Notes under the pieces: model-generated | Seen by the model: only the letters and a program-made list of their open reading frames with translations | Database searches by the model: none | Told to the model about the DNA's origin: nothing | Program-made: the position numbers and the translations under genes | Shown here: positions 3,411-57,029 of the stretch, one piece after another | Layout of the letters: every line of letters begins with the position of its first letter | How positions within the stretch are numbered: position 1 is the stretch's first letter | From: a virus | Length of the DNA: 64,000 nucleotides | Virus record (IMG/VR): IMGVR_UViG_3300014204_007611 | Strand: one strand, 5' to 3'

Positions 3411-4046
3411 TTATATATCAAGAGTGGTCTCACCGACGATTTGAAACTGAACTCCGCGTTTTCTGATTTCGCTAATTACGGCATTCATTACTGCTCGTTG
3501 GCTGGCAGAAATGCTACCGGGCCTAGGAGTATGATAAAAATAGTGCCTACCGACACTATTAAATCCGCAGCCGTACAATACTATCTTGGTTGCACCCATA
3601 AGATAAGCAAGCTGAACCGCACAACAACTGATAGTACCGCCAAACATCAAATAATTCATATCTGACTTTAGTCTATCGGATTTATACCATCGATACATAA
3701 ACGTCAGATGCGGCTCTACGGGTGGTGGTAGTTTTACACTGCTTTGCTTTGCAGTAATAACAGCCGTGCGTTTGATGTCTTGGAATAGGTCGATTGGATA
3801 TAAGATCTTATCAGGAGCGGCAGTCAATTTAGCAATAACTCTAACTCTAGAGCAGTCAATGTTGAACCAATCGAACGCCGACGACCTAGCATCACCACAC
3901 ATGAAATAATCAAATCTCTTACCAAGCTTGGCAGCACCATTCACACCTATAGAAAGGTGTTGATTTTTAAATTCGATCGCTGTTGGTCCTGAACCAACAA
4001 CAGCTATTGTCTCACCTTTATGGATACCATGTAGCGCTTTAATCAT
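3411..4046 (-). CDS. DUF115/Maf-like putative glycosyltransferase
   Basis: IAVVGSGPTAIEF...SIGVNGAA...FMCGDARS; paralogous to the C-terminal domain of the upstream gene. Confidence 0.45.
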   Translation of the reverse strand: MIKALHGIHKGETIAVVGSGPTAIEFKNQHLSIGVNGAAKLGKRFDYFMCGDARSSAFDWFNIDCSRVRVIAKLTAAPDKILYPIDLFQDIKRTAVITAKQSSVKLPPPVEPHLTFMYRWYKSDRLKSDMNYLMFGGTISCCAVQLAYLMGATKIVLYGCGFNSVGRHYFYHTPRPGSISASQRAVMNAVISEIRKRGVQFQIVGETTLDI

Positions 4047-5905
4047 TATTTTCGTTTTAAAGAAGAAAAAACTTCACTTGTCTCTGTATCCCATTCTCCA
4101 ATATTGCAGAACGATTCCGGCCATAGTACTTTGCCGTCTCTTTCGTCAGGACCTTCATCTAAAAAGCAACCACACACAGCACATCGATTAGCGGTACGTT
4201 GTGTGCATAAAGCACATTTATCTAATCTGGCTTCAATTGTCTCAATTCTGGCTGTTTTGGCTCCAGACAATTTGTGTTTCGCTAATGCCTTTGCATAATT
4301 CCAAATCATCCTAGGCATCGCCGGTAGCTTCTTTTTATCGGCTGGATCACGACTTAATAAAGTATAACCATAATCATCATTTTGATGTTCAACGACTGAC
4401 CATTCAGGATTCTCACGCATCCATTTGCGCATCGCAATAAATAAGCCAGGACCGGAAGGTTCGCCCACTTCGCCATATGCACCAGTTGAACGCAACAGAA
4501 TCCAACGACGTGCTCTCTTGCCGAATTTAGACAATTCAGCGTATAGCCTATCAGCCTGATGTATAGAATGGATGACCAATAAATCAGTTTCATCTATGTC
4601 GGCTAGCATCATCCAATCGACCGCATAATTCGAATAACTCGTACTGCCAGCAATTTCTAATAACTGCTGATGGACTGGCGACGGCTCTGATGTATAGACA
4701 CGCAGCACTTTGGGATGCCCGGCCAACAAAGTGACATCAAACTCTTTCTGTTTGACTAATGCCGTTACATGACTACACTTCGAAGCTAAATCGCGGAAAC
4801 GCGGCATATACTTGCCCATGTTATGTGGGTGCGATTCAGTCCAAGCGAACGCCTCCTCGATTGTATTGCCTATGCGTTGACATCCAGAGCATGGTGCAAA
4901 GATGTGTCCAATGGGGTCTTCAAGAAGATAGTTCCACGCTTTTACGTCGATAGGCTTATCGGTGCCGACAAAATGGTCTTTTATTCCATCTAACGGTAGC
5001 TGCAGCTCTTGATGCCCAATTACATAGTTTCTTATTCTATCCCAATAACTTAATGGATAAGATGCTCCTCTAGGCCGCAGAAATCTGTGTGTCCATCTAA
5101 GAAATGGCAAGTTCAAGCATTTCTTACCTGCTTGTCGATACTTAATGTGAATATAGCCTTCTTCACCACCAAATCCGCGAAACGTTGGATTGAATTTAAG
5201 CCACGCATCTTTTCGGCACGTGAAAAGCCCCATCCCATTTGCTGGTATTTCGAACGGTTGGTCGTAATCGCTAGAGCCAATCGTTTTACATCCAGCGTTA
5301 TAAAATTCTGTTTCGTGGCCGTAGTATGGAATCTTCGGATATTGCAACCCACAGTCCGGGCATCGCTGGTAGGTTTTGTCAAAATCCATTAAATCGTGTG
5401 CTGTGGTATCTTCAGCCGATATCGGTATCGAGAAGTGCCACCCACATTTACAGGACCACGCGCGGCTCCAAATACCCCACATAGCACCTCGCCATGTCAA
5501 ATCGAAATGAGTCGAAATATCATGCAGGTCGTTATAAACAAGCGGGCCAGTGAGCAAATCATTATTATCTGGATTATGCTCATACCAATTTATCAGGCGT
5601 TTGATGGCACCTGGGGCGAGCATGATATGACAATCCATGCAAAGAACGAGTTCAGTTTGTGCTTCGTCGAAAACACGGCCTTTCGCATTTGCAGCGCCAA
5701 CAACATCTTCGTAAGCGATATAGCGAGCTGGCGTTTCTGCAATAAAGGAAGCGACAGCTTTACCATCTGGAGTATTTGGTGAATTATCGACGACTAGAAG
5801 CTCGACATCGCTTAAATCGTGATACATCCTCAACGCTTGGATGGAGAAATAAACCCCATCAAAGTCATTGTAATGGGCCATCCCAATCGTTAGTCTCTTG
5901 ACCAT
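4046..5905 (-). CDS. Glycosyltransferase family 2-like protein with a C-terminal Cys-rich extension
   Basis: LTIGMAHYNDFDGVYFSIQALRMY...VELLVVDNSP is a GT-A fold with a DxD-like VVDNS motif. It overlaps 3411..4046 by an ATGA junction. Confidence 0.55.
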   Translation of the reverse strand: MVKRLTIGMAHYNDFDGVYFSIQALRMYHDLSDVELLVVDNSPNTPDGKAVASFIAETPARYIAYEDVVGAANAKGRVFDEAQTELVLCMDCHIMLAPGAIKRLINWYEHNPDNNDLLTGPLVYNDLHDISTHFDLTWRGAMWGIWSRAWSCKCGWHFSIPISAEDTTAHDLMDFDKTYQRCPDCGLQYPKIPYYGHETEFYNAGCKTIGSSDYDQPFEIPANGMGLFTCRKDAWLKFNPTFRGFGGEEGYIHIKYRQAGKKCLNLPFLRWTHRFLRPRGASYPLSYWDRIRNYVIGHQELQLPLDGIKDHFVGTDKPIDVKAWNYLLEDPIGHIFAPCSGCQRIGNTIEEAFAWTESHPHNMGKYMPRFRDLASKCSHVTALVKQKEFDVTLLAGHPKVLRVYTSEPSPVHQQLLEIAGSTSYSNYAVDWMMLADIDETDLLVIHSIHQADRLYAELSKFGKRARRWILLRSTGAYGEVGEPSGPGLFIAMRKWMRENPEWSVVEHQNDDYGYTLLSRDPADKKKLPAMPRMIWNYAKALAKHKLSGAKTARIETIEARLDKCALCTQRTANRCAVCGCFLDEGPDERDGKVLWPESFCNIGEWDTETSEVFSSLKRK

Positions 5906-5929: not shown

Positions 5930-6667
5930 CTATGTACGCTTAGATACGATCGTAGTTGGGATGAACTCGACCTTCTCAGCAACTCTTAAACGGCGATCCT
6001 CAAAAAATGCCCCAATACGTTCTGTGTAAATAATCGTGTCGCCAAGAATTGTACACTTATAGGCCGGTAAATCATCACATATTACCAATAGCTGCTCGCC
6101 TGTGTCGATGTCGTATAAGAGTGCAAACAACTCTTCGTTATCGTATCGTTGCCCAGATACAATTAGCTTATTTGGCTGCTCAGCACAGTAAGATAAGCTA
6201 TAAACCATTACGTTTGGCATTTCTATAATATCGTCTTTAATAGCTGTTCTTATATGAATTACAGCAGGATTCTCCTTGCTAGGCTCAACAAACACAGTTC
6301 TATCTCTTTGAATAAATCCAGCCGGGGTATCTAATATCGCAACCGGAGCAGATAGGCTCGTAATGTCGGGGCCATCCATTCGGTATAATCTGTAACGAGT
6401 GAAATCGGCACCACCAGCGATGAATGATATATGTAAACCAAACTCGTCTTGCCAAGCACTCGGAGAGCATTCGAGCTTCTGAGTGAATCCAGTTTCCAGG
6501 CGAGTTGATTCTATCCCCTTAACATAATAGATATGCCACGGATCACATCTACAGAATAATAAGATCCTGTCGTCTACTACAGGTACCAAAAATGGCATAT
6601 GCGATCTACCATCAGGCACTCCATTAGGAACTATGACGGCCATACTATCGAACCTCCCTGGTCGCAA
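5930..6667 (-). CDS. Hypothetical protein
   Basis: 245-aa ORF, same strand, immediately downstream of the fibre paralogs. Confidence 0.4.
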   Translation of the reverse strand: MRPGRFDSMAVIVPNGVPDGRSHMPFLVPVVDDRILLFCRCDPWHIYYVKGIESTRLETGFTQKLECSPSAWQDEFGLHISFIAGGADFTRYRLYRMDGPDITSLSAPVAILDTPAGFIQRDRTVFVEPSKENPAVIHIRTAIKDDIIEMPNVMVYSLSYCAEQPNKLIVSGQRYDNEELFALLYDIDTGEQLLVICDDLPAYKCTILGDTIIYTERIGAFFEDRRLRVAEKVEFIPTTIVSKRT

Positions 6668-9222
6668 CCAATCTGCAATGACATAAACCCGTCATAGTTA
6701 TATATTGATGACTGGGTAAATGAATCTGGCAAACCAACCAAATAACCATTGGTAACAGCGCCGTTGCTATATTGTATGTGGTAAGCTGTCTCGATTATAC
6801 GCCAGTAGCCGGTTGCTGGTCCTATTTGTCCTTGATATGGCGTCAGATCCCATGTTCTGTGTGTGGGATTAACAACATAAGTTGCTACTACACGCGGTGT
6901 ACAAGTCGGAGAAGGCGTTGTAGTCGGTTGAGTTGTTGTTGGCGCGTGTGTTGTTGGTGGTGTTTGTGTCGTTGGTGGTGTTTGTGTTGTTGGAGCCGGT
7001 GTTGTACCCGGCTTGCATCTCGTGTAGGCGTAGGCCCCACCACCAGGTATTGGTTCCCTAGGAGTACTACTAGTAGGTTCGGAGCACGAACATCCTGGAG
7101 TGCAAGGATTGGTAACTCTAGACCAAGTGCCACCGCCTGGAGACATATACCATTTGCATTGCCCCGGACAAATAACAGGTGTCGGACCTTGAGTTGTAGG
7201 CCCTTGTGTCGTCGGCGGATGATGAGTTGTCGGTCGTGGTGTCGTCGGCGGATACCACGTTGTTGGTGGCCAGAACGTAGTTGTTGGCGCGGGCGTTGTT
7301 GTTGGAAATGGTGGAAGCGTTGTTGTCGTCGTCGGCTGTGGTCCGATGGTTGGTGCTACTGTTGTAGTCGGGGCAACTGTAGTTGTTGGTCGTGTAGAAG
7401 AGCCAATAGCGCAAGCTAATATTGAATACCCAAGACAACACACAACACCTTCGAGGTTAATATCAATCCCAAATTCAAGTGCTACGTTGCTTGGACCGGT
7501 ATATGTAAATGTTATCGGAGAGCCAATTGTCGAATATTGTTTTCCGCCAGTTATCGCAGAATTATTAGTGCATGCCGCTGACCAAGAAACTGGACATGTG
7601 GTGTCGTCTGGATAATTTGGGCAAGATTCGCTACTAATATATCTCGCTTCATCGCATATTGTGTTAAACTTACTACTAAACGTCATGTTAGCAGTAATAG
7701 AACCGCTATCTGTCCATGGTACATGGACAGTTACATCATAATGCTGTAGTGTGCCATCTATGACACAATCGAAGCCTTGACATGTCGGGTCGTCGGATGA
7801 GTTGGTGTTATAATTTACAGGTAGATTGATGTCTAAATATGTATCTAAATAACTCGGACAATCGCATGGGCAACATATTTCAACTGGTTCCGGCTTAATT
7901 GGTTCAACAACCAAAACAGGACAGCCGCCAGCAACATCATTAACATTAGAACAGAAAAAGAAGTCTTCTTGACAGCATCGCTGTCCAGGGAATTGCGGTT
8001 CAACAATTGCCCATGGATATCGTGAATCACGATTAGTTCCAGAATTTGCCTGTCGCCAAGCAACAATCGACGCCGGTGTAAAATCTTTCCACTTAAATTG
8101 ATTCGACTGGTGTTGTGTCCAGCAAGCCTCAATTGGCGTCCATTCAACAAATTGCAATGTTGGTATATCTATCTGTTTCTCTGCGAACTTGAATCGCGTT
8201 ATAGTCTTACAATCATCGATTGTTGATTTTACCGCTGCCAGTGATAAATCTGCGACAGTGTTCAACGGTGTTGTACTGGTAGTAGTGCAACTATGTAATA
8301 CTGCAAGCTTCGACACACAGTTGTTTGGGAATAGCTTGTCGGAAAAGAAATAGATGTCCGACATCAAGCTATTTGATCTCAACGAAATAACTGCAGTTGT
8401 TGCTTCTACAGTCTCATCTATAAAGCTATTTTCTACGACATCAATAAATCCGCCGCCATCCTTACCGTTTTGTCCCTTGTGGCCTATTTCATTCGCTTTG
8501 TAGTGCCAGGTGTTTCCAGCCCACGAATTTGATATTAATCTTCCAGATATATTAGAAGAAACGATATCGTAATTAAGAAACGAGCCGTCTTCAAGTTCTA
8601 CTTCTGAATAGATAATAGCATAAGGGTCGCCGTTTATCGGTTGCCAAATCGTCAATGAACTCTTATTAGAGCTGTTTTTGAATAGCCTTAAAGAAATAGG
8701 AGTGTCGATAGTCGACGCAGCGGTTGCATTGATTACAAGCGCCGTCCCGTCCAATGTCGCGGCGTGTTTTGTTTCTGATTTGCCGGGAGTACCATCAGGC
8801 CCAGTATTGCCACGTTCGCCAACAAGCCCATCTTTACCAGGGCATTTCAATTGTGATAGCAGTGCCAACAATCTAGAACGGTTGACCTCAATTCGCAAAT
8901 CGTTATTAGATTCCGGCGAAAACGAAACCGTGTGGTTTGACGATTGAAATAAATAATAATAACCAGTTAAATGTGGATAGATTTTCAGAAAGTTAAAACT
9001 CAAGCCATCTTTAGTGGCTTGAGATATCGCGTTAATGCGAGTAAAAATTGTAGGCGACACCAGGCCATCACTGGTTTCCGTTACGACAGAAGCGGCTGCA
9101 AACGTCCCAATACAAGACCAAGTGTTCAGCTTGCTGCTATATTGCCACCGGTCGCCGCTACTGTCAAGGACAATAGTGCCATCCGCTACGTTCGTTCCAT
9201 TACTCAACGCGTGGCAATTCAA
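6631..9222 (-). CDS. Fibre-like structural glycoprotein candidate, with a collagen-like G-X-Y segment and a Pro/Thr-rich mucin-like linker (paralog B)
   Basis: 863 aa. The N-terminal ~140 aa is about 70% identical to the adjacent paralog, with a short collagen-like run GLVGERGNTGPDGTPG and a conserved CCQEDFFFCSNVNDV block. The long TTPAPTT/PTTQGPTT repeat lies near the C-terminus. Confidence 0.6.
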   Translation of the reverse strand: MNCHALSNGTNVADGTIVLDSSGDRWQYSSKLNTWSCIGTFAAASVVTETSDGLVSPTIFTRINAISQATKDGLSFNFLKIYPHLTGYYYLFQSSNHTVSFSPESNNDLRIEVNRSRLLALLSQLKCPGKDGLVGERGNTGPDGTPGKSETKHAATLDGTALVINATAASTIDTPISLRLFKNSSNKSSLTIWQPINGDPYAIIYSEVELEDGSFLNYDIVSSNISGRLISNSWAGNTWHYKANEIGHKGQNGKDGGGFIDVVENSFIDETVEATTAVISLRSNSLMSDIYFFSDKLFPNNCVSKLAVLHSCTTTSTTPLNTVADLSLAAVKSTIDDCKTITRFKFAEKQIDIPTLQFVEWTPIEACWTQHQSNQFKWKDFTPASIVAWRQANSGTNRDSRYPWAIVEPQFPGQRCCQEDFFFCSNVNDVAGGCPVLVVEPIKPEPVEICCPCDCPSYLDTYLDINLPVNYNTNSSDDPTCQGFDCVIDGTLQHYDVTVHVPWTDSGSITANMTFSSKFNTICDEARYISSESCPNYPDDTTCPVSWSAACTNNSAITGGKQYSTIGSPITFTYTGPSNVALEFGIDINLEGVVCCLGYSILACAIGSSTRPTTTVAPTTTVAPTIGPQPTTTTTLPPFPTTTPAPTTTFWPPTTWYPPTTPRPTTHHPPTTQGPTTQGPTPVICPGQCKWYMSPGGGTWSRVTNPCTPGCSCSEPTSSTPREPIPGGGAYAYTRCKPGTTPAPTTQTPPTTQTPPTTHAPTTTQPTTTPSPTCTPRVVATYVVNPTHRTWDLTPYQGQIGPATGYWRIIETAYHIQYSNGAVTNGYLVGLPDSFTQSSIYNYDGFMSLQIGCDQGGSIVWPS
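6890..7400. repeat. Degenerate tandem repeats encoding the Pro/Thr linker of the second fibre paralog
   Basis: Repeated GTTGTTGG(T/C)G(G/C) units; they generate shadow ORFs on both strands. Confidence 0.55.
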
Positions 9223-9233
9223 CGCTCATCTCC

Positions 9234-11813
9234 TTAAAGATATTCATGAACCACCGGGTATCCGGCACCCGATTCTGGATAATATGTGCCTGGATTTGTT
9301 ATGCTGTATCCAGCAGTCGGTTGCTTCCATGCGCTAGATCCCAATGACGCACCAATGCTATAATATCCACTAGTGCTACACCAAATGGTATAAGAGCCAT
9401 CAGTTCTAACAGCATACACTCTGCCATTATAATCGCCAGCTGCTAGATAATCGCCAGTACAATCCGGCTGCACAGAGCTGCCTCCTGTAACATAATAATC
9501 CGGTGCAGTTGGCGATGGCGACAGTGAATGTGATGGCGACAGTGAATGTGATGGCGACAGTGAATGTGATGGCGAATGCGATGGTGACAGCAGCGATGGT
9601 GATGGCGATGGCGAATCTGACGGTGAAGCCGAAAGTGGCGACAAAGAAATCGATAACAATGACGGAGATATCGACAATGGCGATTGCGATGGCGTAGGAG
9701 ATATTGATGGTGATGGCGACGGCGAATTACTCAAACTCAACGATGCCGATGGCGACAATGATTCAGATGGAGACGGTGAAGGCGACAATGATTCAGATGG
9801 AGATGGTGATACCGATACCGATGGTGATGGTGACAATGAAACCGATGGCGACAAACTGATCGATGGCGACAATGAAGTCGAAGTTGATAATGATGGTGAT
9901 GGCGAAGGCGATACACTTAGCATGATTTCAGCGGCACTAGTCTCACCAGCAGCAGATACTGGGTCAAGTGCGCTAACTGATACTGTTATCCTGTATCCTA
10001 AACAGCAGTTCAATCTTAATGTATTGATCTCTGCATTAGTGACTATCGTCCCAGACGTACCACTAAAATAAAAAGTGATAATTCCAATATTTGTCAAAGG
10101 CTGACGGCTATCGCCAGATTGGCGTGATATCGTGGTCGTCGCAACCGTTTTATCAGTAACCGCCCATCCTATAGGACAACTTGACTGGCTTACCGCAACA
10201 CGCGGGTCGAATGTAAATCCAGGTATCGTACTTTCTTGAGATTGGTATATCTCTCGCGCATCGTCACATATCGAATCGTATTCCAATCTCCAAGTGACTT
10301 CCACCACTATTGGTGATGTTGTTGATATATTGACAGTTGCATTATATTCATGCAGTCCGCCATTTATACTACAAACAGCAACCTGTGAAGATGTATTGCC
10401 GATAGCCGTTAAATTGACATCCTCAAACTCATATCCACCCTCTAATAAAAATGATATCGGGCAGTCGCAGTTGCAACCATAAGTCGAGCCAGCTGGAGTC
10501 TGGATACTATCAACAATTCCAATCGGGCAAGCTCCGGTTACATCATTAACATTAGAACAGAAAAAGAAATCTTCTTGGCAGCATAGTTGGCCTGGGTCCG
10601 CCTCTTCAACTATCGACCATGGATAGCCTGGGTTAGATGCCATGCTCTCGTTGGCTTTTTGCCAAGGCATCATCCCAGAATCAACCTTTGTGTAATCTGG
10701 CCACATCAACCTAGAAGCAGCAAGATGTCTTTGTCGCAAACACGTGCCAGTAGGAGTCCAATCGCTAAACACCAATTTCGGAATTTCAGCTACAACAGGG
10801 TTTATATTGTACCTAGTTATGCTTTTACAACTATCGGTTGAAACCTGTAATGCGGCATATGTGTCGGTTATCGATGTCGTTGTAGTAGCACAAATATGGC
10901 TAACAGCCAGTTTTGATACACAATTTGTTTTGAATAGCTCTGACGATAAATAATTTATCGAATTCAAGCCGTCACCTTGACGCATCAAGATTATAGCTGC
11001 GTTCGACATTAAATTACTATCATTTACAGCATCTGACACGACACTTATGAAGCCGTGCCCGTCTTCACCAACAGGGCCTCTCTTACCCATTTGTAAAGCT
11101 TTATAGTGCCATGTCAGCGTACTCCATTGTTGGCTGGCTATCTGCCCAGATAAACGTCCATCAGCATATTCCAAAAATGTCGAGGCAGTATCAATTATTA
11201 TCGAAGACGACACTACCTCGAATTCAGATCCGACAATTTTTATTACGACTGAAGGAGTAGAAGAATAACTAGAAAACAATCTTAAAGATATTGGCGTGCC
11301 GAGTGAATCATCAACAGCTACATCAATCGACATTCTTGAATCGGATATAGAAGCTGGATACTTCTTTTCCGATTCACCAGGAGAGCCATGTGTCCCTGTA
11401 TCTCCTTGCTCACCGATAAGCCCCTGCTCGCCTGGACATCTAAGTTGTGATAGTAGTGCAAGTAATCGCGGCCTATTGACCTCAATCCTTAAATCATTGA
11501 TCGATTCTGGCTCAAATGTCAGAGTGTGATTTGAGGACTGGAATAAATAATAATAGCCAGATAAGTGAGGGTATATCTTTAGGAAATCGAATGTCAGACC
11601 GTTTTTAATCGCTGACGATATCGCATTTATACGAGTGAAGATGGACGGAGAAACCAATCCGTCTTTAGTGTCGGTAACGACTGGCGAGTCATCGATGGTT
11701 CCGATATTCATCCAGGAATTCAACTGGATGTTATATCTCCAAATTGATCCATAGACATCACAGACCTCCATACCATCTGTCGGCGTTTTCGGTAGGCGTG
11801 TGATGTTTGACAT
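9234..11813 (-). CDS. Fibre-like structural glycoprotein candidate, with a collagen-like segment and a Ser/Pro-rich linker (paralog A)
   Basis: 859 aa. The N-terminus and central Cys-rich blocks are shared with 6631..9222 (GEQGLIGEQGDTGTHGSPG; CCQEDFFFCSNVNDV). The linker is SPSPSxSLSPS repeats, encoded by the tandem DNA repeats around 9490-9960. Confidence 0.6.
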   Translation of the reverse strand: MSNITRLPKTPTDGMEVCDVYGSIWRYNIQLNSWMNIGTIDDSPVVTDTKDGLVSPSIFTRINAISSAIKNGLTFDFLKIYPHLSGYYYLFQSSNHTLTFEPESINDLRIEVNRPRLLALLSQLRCPGEQGLIGEQGDTGTHGSPGESEKKYPASISDSRMSIDVAVDDSLGTPISLRLFSSYSSTPSVVIKIVGSEFEVVSSSIIIDTASTFLEYADGRLSGQIASQQWSTLTWHYKALQMGKRGPVGEDGHGFISVVSDAVNDSNLMSNAAIILMRQGDGLNSINYLSSELFKTNCVSKLAVSHICATTTTSITDTYAALQVSTDSCKSITRYNINPVVAEIPKLVFSDWTPTGTCLRQRHLAASRLMWPDYTKVDSGMMPWQKANESMASNPGYPWSIVEEADPGQLCCQEDFFFCSNVNDVTGACPIGIVDSIQTPAGSTYGCNCDCPISFLLEGGYEFEDVNLTAIGNTSSQVAVCSINGGLHEYNATVNISTTSPIVVEVTWRLEYDSICDDAREIYQSQESTIPGFTFDPRVAVSQSSCPIGWAVTDKTVATTTISRQSGDSRQPLTNIGIITFYFSGTSGTIVTNAEINTLRLNCCLGYRITVSVSALDPVSAAGETSAAEIMLSVSPSPSPSLSTSTSLSPSISLSPSVSLSPSPSVSVSPSPSESLSPSPSPSESLSPSASLSLSNSPSPSPSISPTPSQSPLSISPSLLSISLSPLSASPSDSPSPSPSLLSPSHSPSHSLSPSHSLSPSHSLSPSPTAPDYYVTGGSSVQPDCTGDYLAAGDYNGRVYAVRTDGSYTIWCSTSGYYSIGASLGSSAWKQPTAGYSITNPGTYYPESGAGYPVVHEYL
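9490..9960. repeat. Tandem nucleotide repeats encoding the Ser/Pro linker of the fibre paralog
   Basis: GTGAATGTGATGGCGACA repeats three times, followed by multiple GATGGCGA(C/T)(A/G) variants. Confidence 0.6.
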
Positions 11814-22623: not shown

Positions 22624-22640
22624 AATATACCTAAAAAAGT

Positions 22641-22671
22641 GCCCCAGTGGACATATCCGGTCCACCGGGGC
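22641..22671 (-). terminator. Rho-independent terminator
   Basis: GCCCCAGTGGAC-atatccg-GTCCACCGGGGC hairpin (11 bp with one A.C mismatch), followed on the minus strand by a TTTTTT tract at 22634-22639 immediately before the ATG of the ATPase gene. Confidence 0.55.
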
Positions 22672-22906
22672 TGGGTAATTGTATTACTACAATTTGCACC
22701 GAATTACAGAGGCCAACTTTTCCGTTTAACCACGACCCTTGAGTTTTATACCCATGCGTAATGCGATTATACGACGACCGCAGTTAGTATTCTGCCCGCA
22801 AGAGCGGTCGGCCTGAGTTGCACAGGCATACATGGTTGGTTTTGGTCGAGGACTCGATTTGGTCTCCGGTGCGATGCTGAACTTGTAGCGGTAATCTGAA
22901 CCTGGG

Positions 22907-22997
22907 TGAGCTAAAACTTGCCTCTGCCACTGGGCTATCCCCGCGTGTTCTCTTCGCAAGTGCGGGGACCAGGACTCGAACCTGGGCTTTTGGGTTT
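22907..22997 (-). tRNA. tRNA-derived locus in non-canonical order: an intact T-arm plus acceptor 3' strand module lies upstream of an acceptor 5' strand, D-arm and anticodon-arm module. It is a possible permuted or split tRNA, a tRNA remnant, or an attachment-site relic.
   Basis: Minus strand reads AAACC-CAAAAGC-CCAGG-TTCGAGT-CCTGG-TCCCCGC-A, then CTTGCGAAGAGAACAC, then GCGGGGA-TA-GCC-CAGTGGCAGA-GGC-A-AGTTT-TAGCTCA, followed by a degenerate copy of the T-arm, CCCAGGTTCAGATTACCGC. The acceptor halves are perfectly complementary. I could not fold a canonical contiguous cloverleaf. Confidence 0.3.
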
Positions 22998-23060
22998 CGG
23001 CTCATGAACTTGAATCTGAGATTGAGACTACGCTACTTTAACAACCCGTGGCCAATCAGG

Positions 23061-25266: not shown

Positions 25267-25332
25267 ATACGTCTGTGGTGATAGCCGAAATTGGAGCAGA
25301 ACGTAAAATTACAGTCAAGGTATTATAGAATT

Positions 25333-25515
25333 ATGACTACAAAATCCTGTGAAGATTGCGGCGAAATAATTCCGGTTGAACGTCTTGAAGTCCTACCGAA
25401 CACTAAATACTGCGTTAAGTGTGCAGCTAATCATCCTCTACCGACACCAGATCCCAACATCTTATGTGCTAAAGCAAGTCTTAGTTCTCAGAATGGGTTT
25501 AGCCCCAAAGACTAA
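25333..25515 (+). CDS. DksA/TraR-family C4 zinc-finger protein
   Basis: MTTKSCEDCGEIIPVERLEVLPNTKYCVKCAA. ATG at 25333; the track's 25291 start is a TTG. Confidence 0.5.
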   Translation: MTTKSCEDCGEIIPVERLEVLPNTKYCVKCAANHPLPTPDPNILCAKASLSSQNGFSPKD

Positions 25516-25819
25516 TCGCAGCAAATTTCGATGAGTAGATAGCCGTATTTGAGATATCGAGACACCGACACTTATGATCGCAGCCCTTTTTAGGGTTAGA
25601 TCGCCCAGTCACAATTCTCACATTCTCAACACATCACATAAAAGAACCACAAAAGACTAAAAGAACCACAAAAGACACTCACCTGACATAAAGAATAAAA
25701 GAACCAAAAAAGAAATTCTCATTGTCCTCTTGGGTCGCAGCCGCGTTAGACGTCTTCCTCTACGATCAGCCGGTTAGACCACTCTGACCTCATTCTTCAA
25801 TTGACACATCTGTCGCAGT

Positions 25820-25850
25820 CACTCCCCGGTGCGTTTAGTGCCGGGGAGTG
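25820..25850 (+). other. Perfect 10-bp stem-loop in an intergenic region
   Basis: CACTCCCCGG-tgcgtttagtg-CCGGGGAGTG, followed by ATAGACTTTCTC. Confidence 0.4.
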
Positions 25851-26111
25851 ATAGACTTTCTCAAGTGTATTCAGTGTCTACATAAGTGCGGCTCCCTGGA
25901 TGGAGCAACTAAAGAAGAATGATGTGCCCACTTTAGACGAGACGGCCTGAAAGCCGTAAAAAGGGCAATCTGCACCTGCTGGATTCGTCAACACCAGAGA
26001 CGGTTGTAGTGCCAGGATGGCAGCCAAACAGCCACAGCAGGCCAAGCGTGATGCAAGGATGGCCAGAGGTCCTCCAGGATTTTTCGTTCGGCCTGGAGGG
26101 AGAGGAGGCGA

Positions 26112-26134
26112 GGGAAGGGGGTTTGGGGGTTGGG
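26112..26134 (+). other. G-quadruplex-forming motif downstream of a 9-bp hairpin
   Basis: GGGaaGGGGGtttGGGGGttGGG gives four G3+ runs with loops of 2-3 nt. It is preceded by the TCCTCCAGG-13 nt-CCTGGAGGG hairpin at 26070-26100. Confidence 0.4.
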
Positions 26135-26465
26135 TGTGGAAGAGAAGGAAGCTTACCTTTCAGGCTAACATTCACTAACTTCTTTTATCATGATTATCTT
26201 CCAGATTTCTGATCATTGGAAGTCTCTTGATAAGCGAGCGGTTGTAGCGGCGCAGCCGCAAAAACCGCTCAGCAAATAAACGAGTAAGGGAATGCGCAGC
26301 ATTCCCGAACAAGTAAAATCTGCTGACAATAATCATACATCCAAATAAAAAAGAAAACTGTACAAAGCTAAAGTTGTACTTATACTTCTTTTCAAATATC
26401 TGCTATCAGTATATAACTAACAGAACTACCGTCAGGTACCTCTTGTTTACTACTGCTGGACTGTA

Positions 26466-27455
26466 ATGAAAATCGCAAAAGTTATCGACCAATATGGCTG
26501 GGCGTACTATTTTCTAGACAAAGAGCAGCAACGGTATTCAAAACACAACATTTCAATATTTAGACATAATGAAGTAGTTTTAGACGGTCTTGATGCAGTT
26601 TATATTCACGGACCTGATATCTCTCCAGAAGCTCTTGAACTCTGTCATAGAGCTAAAAGCAAGGGTGTGAAAGTTATCGGCGGTCATGCCGGTCCTGTTG
26701 TTAACTTACAACCATATCCATACCTTGATCTTGCAGTAGGGATTTCACCACAGACATTTAAGTTCTGCAAAGAACACTATAAGTGTCCTACTATATTCCT
26801 GCCTGAAGGAATAGATACTGAATTCTTTATACCGATGAAACGAGACCAGCCTATATCAACTTGGTCTAGGGGCAGATGGCGACCATCAAACGAGAAATTA
26901 CCAATTCCGTCACTAGTAAAACGCAGTGGCAGATATGTTAACAACTTAATAGTTGGTTGGGCTGGAAGACGTGATAACGTCAAGAGAATGCATTTATTAG
27001 AACGCCTTGATTTCAAAATAGAAATACAATCACAGCACGGAAGACAATTTTTTGTTGAGAGATCTCTTGACCACATGCTGCGGTTTTACAATGCTATCGA
27101 TGTACTAGTTATGACTAGCTTAAGTGAATGTATGCCGCGAGTTGTATTAGAGGCTTGTTCATGTGGTATCCCTGTCGTTTGCACTGATGTCGGGTCTATT
27201 CGTATGATTCTCGACCCTGATTGGATCGTACCTGTTAACCCAGAGAAGACAGTAGTAGAAGAGATGAATAAGCGCCTGCATTCACTAGAGAACAAAGACT
27301 TGAGAAGTAAAGTCGGTTTCGATAATAGACAGAGAATTGAAAAGACGTTGAGTTGGAAAGTTTTATGTCCTTATTGGGATGCCGCTATGATAGCGGCGGT
27401 CGAGGGGAACGTAAGTAGTATCAACACCATCAACCGTCATTTTGGAATGATATGA
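26466..27455 (+). CDS. Glycosyltransferase family 4/1 (GT-B)
   Basis: MTSLSECMPRVVLEACSCGIPVVCTDVGSIRMIL matches the EX7E-type GT4 C-terminal motif. Confidence 0.6.
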   Translation: MKIAKVIDQYGWAYYFLDKEQQRYSKHNISIFRHNEVVLDGLDAVYIHGPDISPEALELCHRAKSKGVKVIGGHAGPVVNLQPYPYLDLAVGISPQTFKFCKEHYKCPTIFLPEGIDTEFFIPMKRDQPISTWSRGRWRPSNEKLPIPSLVKRSGRYVNNLIVGWAGRRDNVKRMHLLERLDFKIEIQSQHGRQFFVERSLDHMLRFYNAIDVLVMTSLSECMPRVVLEACSCGIPVVCTDVGSIRMILDPDWIVPVNPEKTVVEEMNKRLHSLENKDLRSKVGFDNRQRIEKTLSWKVLCPYWDAAMIAAVEGNVSSINTINRHFGMI

Positions 27456-56789: not shown

Positions 56790-57029
56790 ATGTTAATGAA
56801 ATTGCTGCCAAAAGTGACTGACGAACTCGACGACGACATCGATATCGACGACGATGAGTGTGAAGACGAAGATGACGACTACGATGATGACGACGAGTGC
56901 GACGACGACGAGTGCGACGACGAAGACGAAGATGACGAAGATTGGGACGACGACGATGAAGACGACTGGGATGAAGATGACGATGACGACTGGATGGATG
57001 ACGACGACCTCGATGAGGAGGATGAGTAA
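56790..57029 (+). CDS. Extremely acidic Asp/Glu-rich protein, a candidate DNA mimic
   Basis: 79 aa, more than 70% D/E, with Cys and Trp interspersed (DDDECDDDECDDEDEDDEDWDDDDEDDWDEDDDDDW). Confidence 0.5.
   Translation: MLMKLLPKVTDELDDDIDIDDDECEDEDDDYDDDDECDDDECDDEDEDDEDWDDDDEDDWDEDDDDDWMDDDDLDEEDE

Follow-up and report, generated by a model that had tools for sequence, protein, structure and literature searches.

About 950 bp of gene-free DNA in a phage-like sequence most likely encodes a previously undescribed folded RNA of about 0.8 kb that occurs only in one clade of uncultivated giant phages. The gap lies at positions 25516-26465 of a 64,000-nucleotide (nt) stretch from the IMG/VR virus record IMGVR_UViG_3300014204_007611, referred to here as the window, between a TraR/DksA-type zinc-finger gene and a GT4 glycosyltransferase gene, both on the plus strand. 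A reading of the window from its letters alone (the sequence-only reading) had pointed to this gap as a candidate non-coding RNA locus, replication origin or packaging site. Comparison with related loci favors the first of these: compensatory changes exceed controls, conservation comes in blocks and the predicted helices carry a G-U bias typical of the plus strand, so that we regard a plus-strand structured RNA under selection as very probable. The locus is made of two parts, a 5' chassis (about 25530-25880) and a 3' domain, domain B (Table 1). Alignment of the loci shows that sister phages have swapped domain B, evidently by recombination, for the unrelated and equally structured domains A or C.

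Relatives were found by searching IMG/VR and the JGI metagenomes with the glycosyltransferase, which gave about 12 distinct syntenic loci (numbered L001, L002 and so on). The dUTPase, the zinc-finger gene and the glycosyltransferase were located in these loci by tblastn, and module boundaries were taken from all-against-all blastn of the gaps. A homologous gap is present in L001-L005, L012, L014, L015, L017 and L019-L021, where it lies between the zinc-finger gene (or the dUTPase) and the glycosyltransferase operon. The chassis (window 25516-25879) is common to L001, L014, L012, L017 and L015 at 74-94% identity and is shared in part with L002, L003, L004 and L021. For domain B (window 25891-26271), identity with L021 is 80% across 386 nt; L003 shares the 5' part of the domain at 79% identity, and L019 has a match to the 3' part. 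At the same site L001, L014, L012, L017, L002, L004, L020 and L016 carry domain A, about 340 nt long and unrelated to B. Identity among its carriers is 77-98%, mostly 77-95%, the value of 98% coming from a 177-nt L016 fragment compared with L001. A third block at this site, domain C, is common to L015 and L005. The modules have been reshuffled: chassis segments of the window and L017 are 91-94% identical, yet the two carry domains B and A, respectively, while L021 has a diverged chassis and a domain B that still matches that of the window. The blocks of the gap are conserved at least as well as the flanking coding DNA (about 70-80%); between the window and L021, for instance, the 80% in the gap compares with about 76% where the glycosyltransferase gene begins. 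Distant homologs of the glycosyltransferase (35-46% identity) have the domain fused in larger proteins, with neither gap nor motif.

Genes have entered the locus as well. Small ORFs (open reading frames) for HNH-type endonucleases (CxxC...HH...CxxCH) lie between the RNA domain and the glycosyltransferase in L004 (about 4600-4990) and L015 (674-1063), and a 376-amino-acid ORF lies between the zinc-finger gene and the chassis in L005 and L012, which makes the locus an insertion hotspot.

Secondary structure was assessed with RNAalifold and explicit pair counting, a pair being scored as compensatory when both of its sides had changed, and with shuffled (n=500) and slid alignments as controls. In the 5' part of domain B (window, L021 and L003), 12 of 48 pairs are compensatory and 97.9% of the cells are paired; the shuffles gave 4.3 +/- 1.6, none of the 500 reached 12, and the slid controls gave 0-1. 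In the 3' part (window, L021 and L019) the count is 13 of 28 pairs (shuffles 4.3 +/- 1.7, 0/500 reaching 13), and in domain A, from seven sequences, 14 of 74 (0/500 shuffles reaching 14). Across these three alignments the slid controls stayed at 0-3. Relative to dinucleotide shuffles, single-sequence folding of the gap has z-scores of -2.5 to -3.0. These values are no more than suggestive, and the comparison among loci is decisive. The hairpin at 26070-26100 is a case in point: in L021 each of its arms is one nucleotide shorter, so that the helix is kept and any reading frame is shifted.

The same alignments carry information on the strand. In predicted helices, G-U cells outnumber A-C cells by 40:3, 9:1, 35:2 and 46:2 in four alignments, and the alifold consensus energy is better on the plus strand in 4/4. 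G-U pairs are exchanged for A-U or G-C at fixed positions, for instance in hairpin unit 3 of L015 and in domain B helices 6, 8 and 9. The G-U excess and these exchanges therefore point to selection on a plus-strand RNA rather than on duplex DNA or a minus-strand transcript. Having Watson-Crick pairs only, the two 3'-terminal hairpins give no strand information.

The gap shows compensatory helices above background and no conserved reading frame, as a conserved structured non-coding RNA should. It is indeed an ORF-poor interval of about 950 bp between two plus-strand genes, as first described. The accompanying remark that coding is dense elsewhere calls for a caveat: an interval at 56.4-57.9 kb that looks like another gap is taken up by small ORFs that overlap, but 22624-23060 is a second true non-coding gap. 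The sequence-only reading had rejected the ORFs within the gap, and rightly so: compared among the window, L001, L003 and L021 they are short, differ from locus to locus, are out of register and share no conserved frame. Coding at 26009-26212 and 26017-26178 was ruled out by this lack of conservation, by loss of a start (the ATG of the 26017 ORF becomes AAG in L021) and by frame-shifting indels. Public gene calls (L043-L045) place a 53-amino-acid ORF at 26051-26212 on the plus strand, across the 26070-26100 hairpin and the G-rich tract. It is not conserved in L021 or L003 and is very probably spurious, because of the start loss in L021 and the frame-shifting paired indels; on these comparisons it is probably a false gene call. 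That the gap hides an unrecognised protein gene is an extremely improbable explanation.

The chassis is built around a short hairpin motif, hereafter the unit, of which each locus has 2-3 copies. A lower stem of 3-4 bp is followed by an asymmetric internal loop, 5'-GC(A)/3'-A, and by a variable upper stem. The lower stem covaries (GAUC/GAUC, GGUC/GACC, UGUC/GACA and, in L005, GACC/GGUU), and the bases of the internal loop are conserved, with 5'-GC or GCA facing a single 3'-A. The upper helix usually begins AG..UU or GUCAC..GUGAU; it is 3-15 bp long, free in sequence and unrelated between loci. No other copy of the unit was found in the 64-kb window or in the fetched flanks. Unit 1 has the same fold in every locus on different upper stem-loops (CCCUUUUUAGGG, CCUGUAUAGG, CCCGAUGGG, CCGUCUUUACGG, CUCCACUGAGAG and others). 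The ortholog of unit 2 is duplicated in L002, and its upper stems are different in L003 and L021. Its 3' half overlaps an alternative hairpin (25772-25789, followed by UCAUUCUUCA) that a scan scored as terminator-like and that only close relatives keep. Unit 3 has exact arms of 11 bp (25819-25829/25841-25851), one more than in the 'perfect 10-bp hairpin' first reported there, and reaches about 15 bp when further pairs including G-U are counted, with a fold energy of -32 kcal/mol. Its upper stems measure 7-15 bp and differ in sequence in L003, L004, L020, L021 and L005, with a compensatory exchange from A-U to G-C in L001 and L012 and a G-U to A-U exchange in L015. Of the elements listed by the sequence-only reading, a GTTAGAC pair (25745-25751 and 25773-25779) is part of hairpin unit 2 and this hairpin of unit 3. 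Unit 3 has a 10-nt internal duplication in L017, and its 3' arm is present three times as a 41-nt tandem in L004 (about 4020-4150); the unstable repeats are thus part of an element that is conserved in other respects.

Units 1 and 2 are separated by a G-poor, A/C-rich spacer that contains the direct repeats noticed earlier: AAAGAACCACAAAAGAC occurs at 25641-25657 and 25660-25676, with a variant at 25698-25714 (family D1). Positions 25601-25700 consist of 8 G, 28 C, 49 A and 15 T and are unpaired in both the minimum free energy and the centroid fold. The same repeat reaches about 16 copies in L017 (3051-3545), and other loci have A/C-rich repeats of their own, of 8-9 nt: CAGTCAAA eight times in L003, about eight copies of the 8-nt ACTCAAAA in L020, CTGTCACA in L021 and CACACTCGA in L005. 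Among close relatives the period varies from 8 to 19 nt and the copy number from 3 to about 16. The repeats are often 8 nt long, each with UC or CC, and the spacers keep their A/C-rich, G-poor composition and not their sequence. Selection therefore appears to act on an unstructured tract with more C than G, not on a binding sequence. By composition, 25601-25700 is a predicted rut site, since Rho loads on unstructured RNA of 70-80 nt or more in which C far outnumbers G.

The 5' edge of the element is marked by a conserved 24-nt box, GATGAGTAGATAGCCGTATTTGAG, which occurs nowhere else in the window even when 3 mismatches are allowed. L001, L014, L012, L017, L004, L003 and L005 all have the box, and L002 has a degenerate form of it. 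It accompanies the downstream module in L003 and L004, which lack the zinc-finger gene, and the chassis in L005 and L012, where a 1.2-kb insert separates that gene from the chassis. The box may mark where the RNA begins or may be a signal close to the promoter. A long-range pairing of the box with the sequence that follows unit 3 was considered and rejected, since it is not conserved in relatives; a closing helix GAUGAG/CUCAUU is weakly predicted by alifold.

Domain B folds independently of the chassis. Its 5' part forms hairpins at 25891-25906, 25909-25936, 25942-25957 and 26070-26100, the last of which, first described as a 9-bp hairpin, has 8 Watson-Crick pairs and one terminal U-G. A junction closed by 25975-25981/26035-26041 encloses 26002-26033 with a GGA-loop hairpin at 26010-26022. 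Toward the 3' end the previously noted nested 8+5 bp stem-loop (26236-26270) is present, and the hairpin at 26288-26306 has the same shape on entirely different sequences in the window, L021 and L019. Between the two parts lies a purine-rich tract, in which the canonical G-quadruplex (G4) motif that had been reported, GGGAAGGGGGTTTGGGGGTTGGG, was found at 26112-26134. With canonical G4 defined as four G-runs of at least 3 and loops of at most 7 nt, it is the only such motif on either strand of the 64-kb window; L021 has the identical motif and L019 a degenerate one, whereas L003 and all phages with domain A or C lack it. RNAalifold pairs the tract, with low confidence and largely through G-U, with a pyrimidine-rich segment at about 26165-26205. 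The tract may form a quadruplex or a G-U-rich helix, or may mimic a ribosome-binding or anti-Shine-Dalgarno sequence.

Domain A (L001 4551-4920 and its homologs) is a candidate for a complex-folded RNA in its own right. In the predicted structure a long-range covarying stem, CGUGAAAGU/ACUUUCACG, closes a multi-helix junction of about 260 nt, and the joining regions are nearly invariant (for example GGCGACGGGAAAAGCGG and GAGCGUAAGAAGC), with no match in Rfam. A likeness of domain A to the cobalamin riboswitch core that was noted by eye is unsupported by models or motif definitions.

The AT-rich spacer that follows domain B is probably outside the RNA. AT content is 72% in 26301-26400, a sigma-70-like site is found at 26359-26386, and window 26383-26465 is conserved with L001 4922-5000 though the domains upstream of it differ (B and A, respectively). 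The counts from the promoter and terminator scans equal those expected from shuffled sequence.

Table 1. Features of the candidate RNA locus and the genes on either side of it (window positions).
Feature	Position	Strand	Description
TraR/DksA-type zinc-finger ORF	25333-25515	+	60 aa; Pfam E=3.9e-12; directly 5' of gap
Conserved 24-nt box	25530-25553	+	GATGAGTAGATAGCCGTATTTGAG; 5' edge of element
Hairpin unit 1	25576-25602	+	Lower stem GAUC/GAUC, loop 5'-GC/3'-A, upper stem AGCCC-loop-GGGUU
G-poor A/C-rich spacer	25604-25730	+	Three 17-19-nt direct repeats (D1); between units 1 and 2
Hairpin unit 2	25733-25780	+	Lower stem GGUC/GACC, GC/A internal loop, longer branched upper stem
Hairpin unit 3	25811-25857	+	Lower stem GUC/GAC, loop GCA/A, very stable upper stem
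Domain B	25885-26325	+	Independently folding 3' domain of about 450 nt
Domain B 5' core	25885-26100	+	79-80% identity to L003 and L021
Purine-rich tract	26100-26160	+	Shine-Dalgarno-like GGAGG repeats and G4 motif (26112-26134)
Domain B 3' end	26236-26324	+	Nested hairpin 26236-26270; stem 26271-26277/26318-26324 enclosing 26288-26306
AT-rich spacer	26330-26465	+	Candidate promoter and 5' untranslated region of glycosyltransferase operon
GT4 glycosyltransferase	26466-27455	+	Directly 3' of gap; first gene of operon

No known RNA family could be assigned to the gap by the Rfam scan that the sequence-only reading had proposed. Rfam 15 (4227 families, among them GOLLD, ROOL, HEARO, OLE, 6S, transfer-messenger RNA (tmRNA), CsrB/Rsm, C4, put/EAR-type elements, riboswitches, group I/II introns and ribozymes) gave no hit in the window at the gathering threshold, a single chance hit to Spy490380c (E=5) in 25300-26600 at E<=10, and no hit in the relatives L001-L005 at E<=1. 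ARAGORN found 0 tRNA or tmRNA genes in the window and L001-L007. When 50,697 cultured-phage records were searched by blastn and tblastn with the gap, the L001 gap and the glycosyltransferase, there was no DNA match and one weak protein match, indicating that no annotated relative exists. Plasmids yielded no relative either. Scans with a 20-mer and a 17-mer from the core of domain B returned only L003 and chance hits in coding regions of unrelated phages, a domain A pattern yielded one further contig (L012), and a box pattern gave 57 loci and no new relative. The unit pattern matched 61 loci in IMG/VR, all by chance apart from the known relatives, and 50 loci in 185,579 bacterial and archaeal genomes, all of them chance single hits. 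With only chance single hits outside the phage clade, the unit is not a dispersed mobile repeat. Likenesses seen by eye to the tmRNA 5' end, the K-turn, attC (GTTRRRY) and the Cas12a repeat are likewise unsupported by models or motif definitions.

As to function, our first choice is a trans-acting, processed RNA that serves as a protein-binding scaffold or decoy, a proposal we make tentatively and with somewhat less than even confidence. The RNA would be transcribed rightward from the region where gene orientation diverges, together with or just after the TraR-like gene. Its three internal-loop hairpins would be recognition or processing sites for one protein, either an endoribonuclease such as RNase III or a dedicated RNA-binding protein, and the exchangeable 3' domain would be the effector, acting in trans as a folded RNA or ribonucleoprotein to bind or titrate a factor of the host or the phage. 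It would work as a multi-hairpin protein-binding RNA outside any described family. Processing by one protein and a 3' payload are suggested by the combination of a repeated hairpin, an unstructured spacer and a large exchangeable domain, and the exchange of non-homologous domains between otherwise similar phages suggests a host- or partner-specific action in trans. Action in trans is also suggested by the separate conservation of the promoter-like spacer in front of the operon (26383-26465 with L001) and by the whole HNH genes of L004 and L015, which separate the RNA from the operon.

Several points weigh against this proposal or the evidence beneath it. The alignments are shallow (n=3 for domain B), and the agreement is inflated because structures were predicted on the very alignments in which pairs were then counted; even so, the slid controls, the pattern at the level of helices and the indels that offset each other make chance an unlikely explanation. 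Transcription, processing and the two ends of the RNA are all inferred from sequence, and the protein partner of the hairpin units is hypothetical. A sigma-70-like TTGAGA-N18-TATGAT at 25549-25578 (10/12 match) occurs in the window and L017 and not in other relatives, its spacing being lost in L001, L014 and L012, so there is no consistent promoter. On the plus strand, domain B is followed by neither a U-tail nor a canonical intrinsic terminator. Complementarity of at least 13 nt to the rest of the window does not rise above chance, and for this reason a base-pairing regulator is not indicated. Finally, the position directly 5' of a long operon suits a cis-acting leader equally well.

Such a leader, belonging to the operon of about 18 kb that encodes glycosyltransferase, radical-SAM, sulfotransferase and methyltransferase functions, is the main rival, unlikely on balance and still a serious one. 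It could modify the transcribing polymerase, as the processive antitermination RNAs put of HK022 and EAR of Bacillus do, or it could be a gate for Rho termination, the A/C-rich tract being a rut site and the units nut-like sites for an antiterminator. Like HK022 put, B. subtilis EAR and lambda nut-tR1, the element is a structured RNA that opens a long operon on its own strand, with hairpins beside a C-rich, G-poor tract; conserved hairpins so placed recall the lambda nutR/tR1 layout. As with EAR, the downstream genes are of the polysaccharide-modification type, and long operons of this type are classic clients of processive antitermination (EAR, RfaH/ops). The unstructured 25601-25700 segment has the excess of C over G (28 to 8) that Rho loading requires, and relatives keep this composition with UC/CC repeats. 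Processive antitermination would also tolerate the insertion of genes between RNA and operon. Against all this, three unrelated domains of 260-450 nt precede the same operon, which is hard to reconcile with a single sensor or polymerase-binding fold. The element is much larger than the known antitermination RNAs and resembles neither put, EAR (epsC) nor any riboswitch model in Rfam, the promoter-like spacer conserved on its own lies between it and the operon, and terminator-like sites in the operon are no commoner than in shuffles.

An improbable alternative is that of a passive intergenic region in which terminators, slippage repeats, small mobile palindromes like repetitive extragenic palindromic (REP) sequences or miniature inverted-repeat transposable elements (MITEs), or remnants of decayed genes have gathered, with no function as RNA. 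The HNH and 376-amino-acid ORFs inserted at this hotspot would fit such a history, as would the unstable repeat copy number, the duplications inside units in L004 and L017 and the swapping of domains between otherwise similar phages. A passive spacer would hardly be conserved as well as or better than the neighboring genes, however, or have its long-range helices and multi-helix junctions preserved by compensatory changes. No reading frame is preserved, and the unit motif is limited to this locus, with chance single hits elsewhere, unlike a mobile repeat.

A DNA-level element, be it a replication origin or a packaging site, is very improbable. The cumulative GC skew has its minimum at 25-26 kb, where gene orientation switches, and direct repeats and an AT-rich stretch are present. 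One variant would be a transcript-primed origin in which the G-rich RNA forms a persistent R-loop, as at ColE1 and T4 origins, with the repeats as iterons and the hairpins as extruded DNA. The locus does share with ColE1 RNA II and the T4 origin transcripts a structured transcript with a G-rich segment at an orientation and GC-skew switch, and R-loops would be favored by the G-rich tract on the non-template strand, where the window has its only G4 motif. Here, however, the G-rich segment is not conserved across domain types, being missing from phages with domains A and C and from L003. The repeats differ in sequence, period and number between close relatives, unlike iterons of one initiator. 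The lack of DnaA boxes in the gap and of an adjacent initiator or primase gene also speaks against the origin suggested by the sequence-only reading, and annotation of the neighboring genes shows no terminase gene adjoining the gap, although a pac or cos site would be expected within or beside terminase genes. Helices kept through G-U with almost no A-C indicate that one RNA strand is selected and not duplex or cruciform DNA. The skew follows gene orientation throughout the window, and since its minimum coincides with the orientation switch it is not independent evidence for an origin.

A multi-hairpin protein-binding RNA acting in trans can be compared with several described systems. Large ornate RNAs such as GOLLD and ROOL are often borne by phages or prophages. 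Like them, the element is phage-encoded, several hundred nucleotides long and multi-domain, with strong covariation support, no associated protein gene and an architecture that varies partly between members; here, too, a tRNA-like element lies nearby (22.6-23.1 kb). It differs in having no sequence or structure match to them, a repeated hairpin chassis, fully exchangeable 3' domains and a distribution restricted to a small phage clade. With the CsrB/RsmZ/CrcZ sponges it shares several copies of one short structured motif joined by unstructured linkers, but the conserved element of the unit is an internal loop at the hairpin base and not a GGA/CA loop motif. A small RNA titrating CsrA/RsmA was rejected: where usually 5-20 or more A(N)GGA motifs, mostly in hairpin loops, would be expected, the window, L021 and L003 have just 3 conserved GGA motifs in common, of which one is in a loop (GCC-AGGAU-GGC, 26010-26022), and two others are lost in relatives; Rfam gave no hit to CsrB, CsrC, RsmX, RsmY, RsmZ or CrcZ. 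The Racr RNA anti-CRISPRs, solitary CRISPR-repeat units of phages, are likewise short phage hairpin units with conserved flanks in few copies, and the exchangeable domains beside the units here would be typical of counter-defence loci. A CRISPR array would have near-identical repeats and a solitary unit would match a repeat of the host. Repeat mimics copy one host repeat, whereas the present units share flanks only and have differing stems; no CRISPR array or cas gene was seen, and the scan of the genome collection gave scattered chance hits.

The wider context is that of a phage. G+C content along the window is 42-48%, and the gene content includes a dUTPase, a CAP-domain protein, DUF7873, a volactin-like protein, a DEAD/RAD3-type helicase and many glycosyltransferases; the dUTPase and CAP-domain protein, with the TraR-like protein and the GT4 glycosyltransferase, are neighbors of the gap. 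The window is taken to be a fragment of a jumbo phage because the contigs most closely related to it, from uncultivated viruses, measure 93-388 kb; among public contigs, four are nearly identical to it, one of them ENA ERZ27247350 k141_1430509 (105 kb). A cyanophage origin, an idea taken from GATCGC, was rejected, the HIP1 element GCGATCGC occurring only once in 64 kb. Nearly all genes left of 25266 are on the minus strand and nearly all from 25333 to about 44.8 kb on the plus strand, so that the gap sits just within the rightward gene block; the radical-SAM protein of the operon is of the radical-SAM/SPASM type. Elsewhere in the window there are a volactin-family (actin-like) protein at 430-1797 on the minus strand (Pfam PF25216, E=5e-42) and two adjacent ORFs of about 860 amino acids each (6631-9222 and 9234-11813) without any Pfam match. 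Among the overlapping small genes near 57 kb, a 79-amino-acid ORF (56790-57029, plus strand) consists almost entirely of Asp and Glu with few Cys and Trp (…DELDDDIDIDDDECEDEDDDYDDDDECDDDE…) and is possibly a DNA-mimic-type, anti-restriction-like protein.

The second non-coding gap (22624-23060) is 95% identical to L001, while its flanking genes are about 72-78% identical. Its minus strand is predicted to encode an RNA about 430 nt long, with a strong intrinsic terminator at its 3' end (about 22672-22632), and an alifold of 8 sequences has 15 compensatory pairs among 84. The 5' third is a circularly permuted tRNA-like module, in the order T arm (CCAGG-UUCGAGU-CCUGG), 3' acceptor strand (UCCCCGC-A), variable linker, 5' acceptor strand (GCGGGGA) and D arm, with a long helix in place of the anticodon stem. 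Two-piece tmRNAs have their elements in this order, but the present RNA has neither the alanine identity pair G3-U70 nor a clear tag frame. Neither ARAGORN nor Rfam detects this RNA.

The chassis-plus-domain family is new and shows no detectable relationship to described RNAs, while its general kind, the large structured RNA borne by phages, is known; its modular, cassette-like organisation appears to be new. To our knowledge, few large RNAs with complex folds lack a known function, and the discovery of each has tended to bring new biology to light. Three structured domains at one fixed site on a shared hairpin array amount to a natural experiment in domain exchange. It is a bold and rather unlikely idea that the locus represents a new class of modular phage RNA, in which the chassis would load or be processed through one dedicated protein and would carry the swappable effectors A, B and C. 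If true, it would be the RNA counterpart of the exchangeable protein cassettes for counter-defence and host takeover, each domain neutralising or hijacking a different host factor. A gene-free stretch of nearly 1 kb in a giant-phage genome can be selected as strongly as the genes beside it, and annotation confined to proteins misses such loci.

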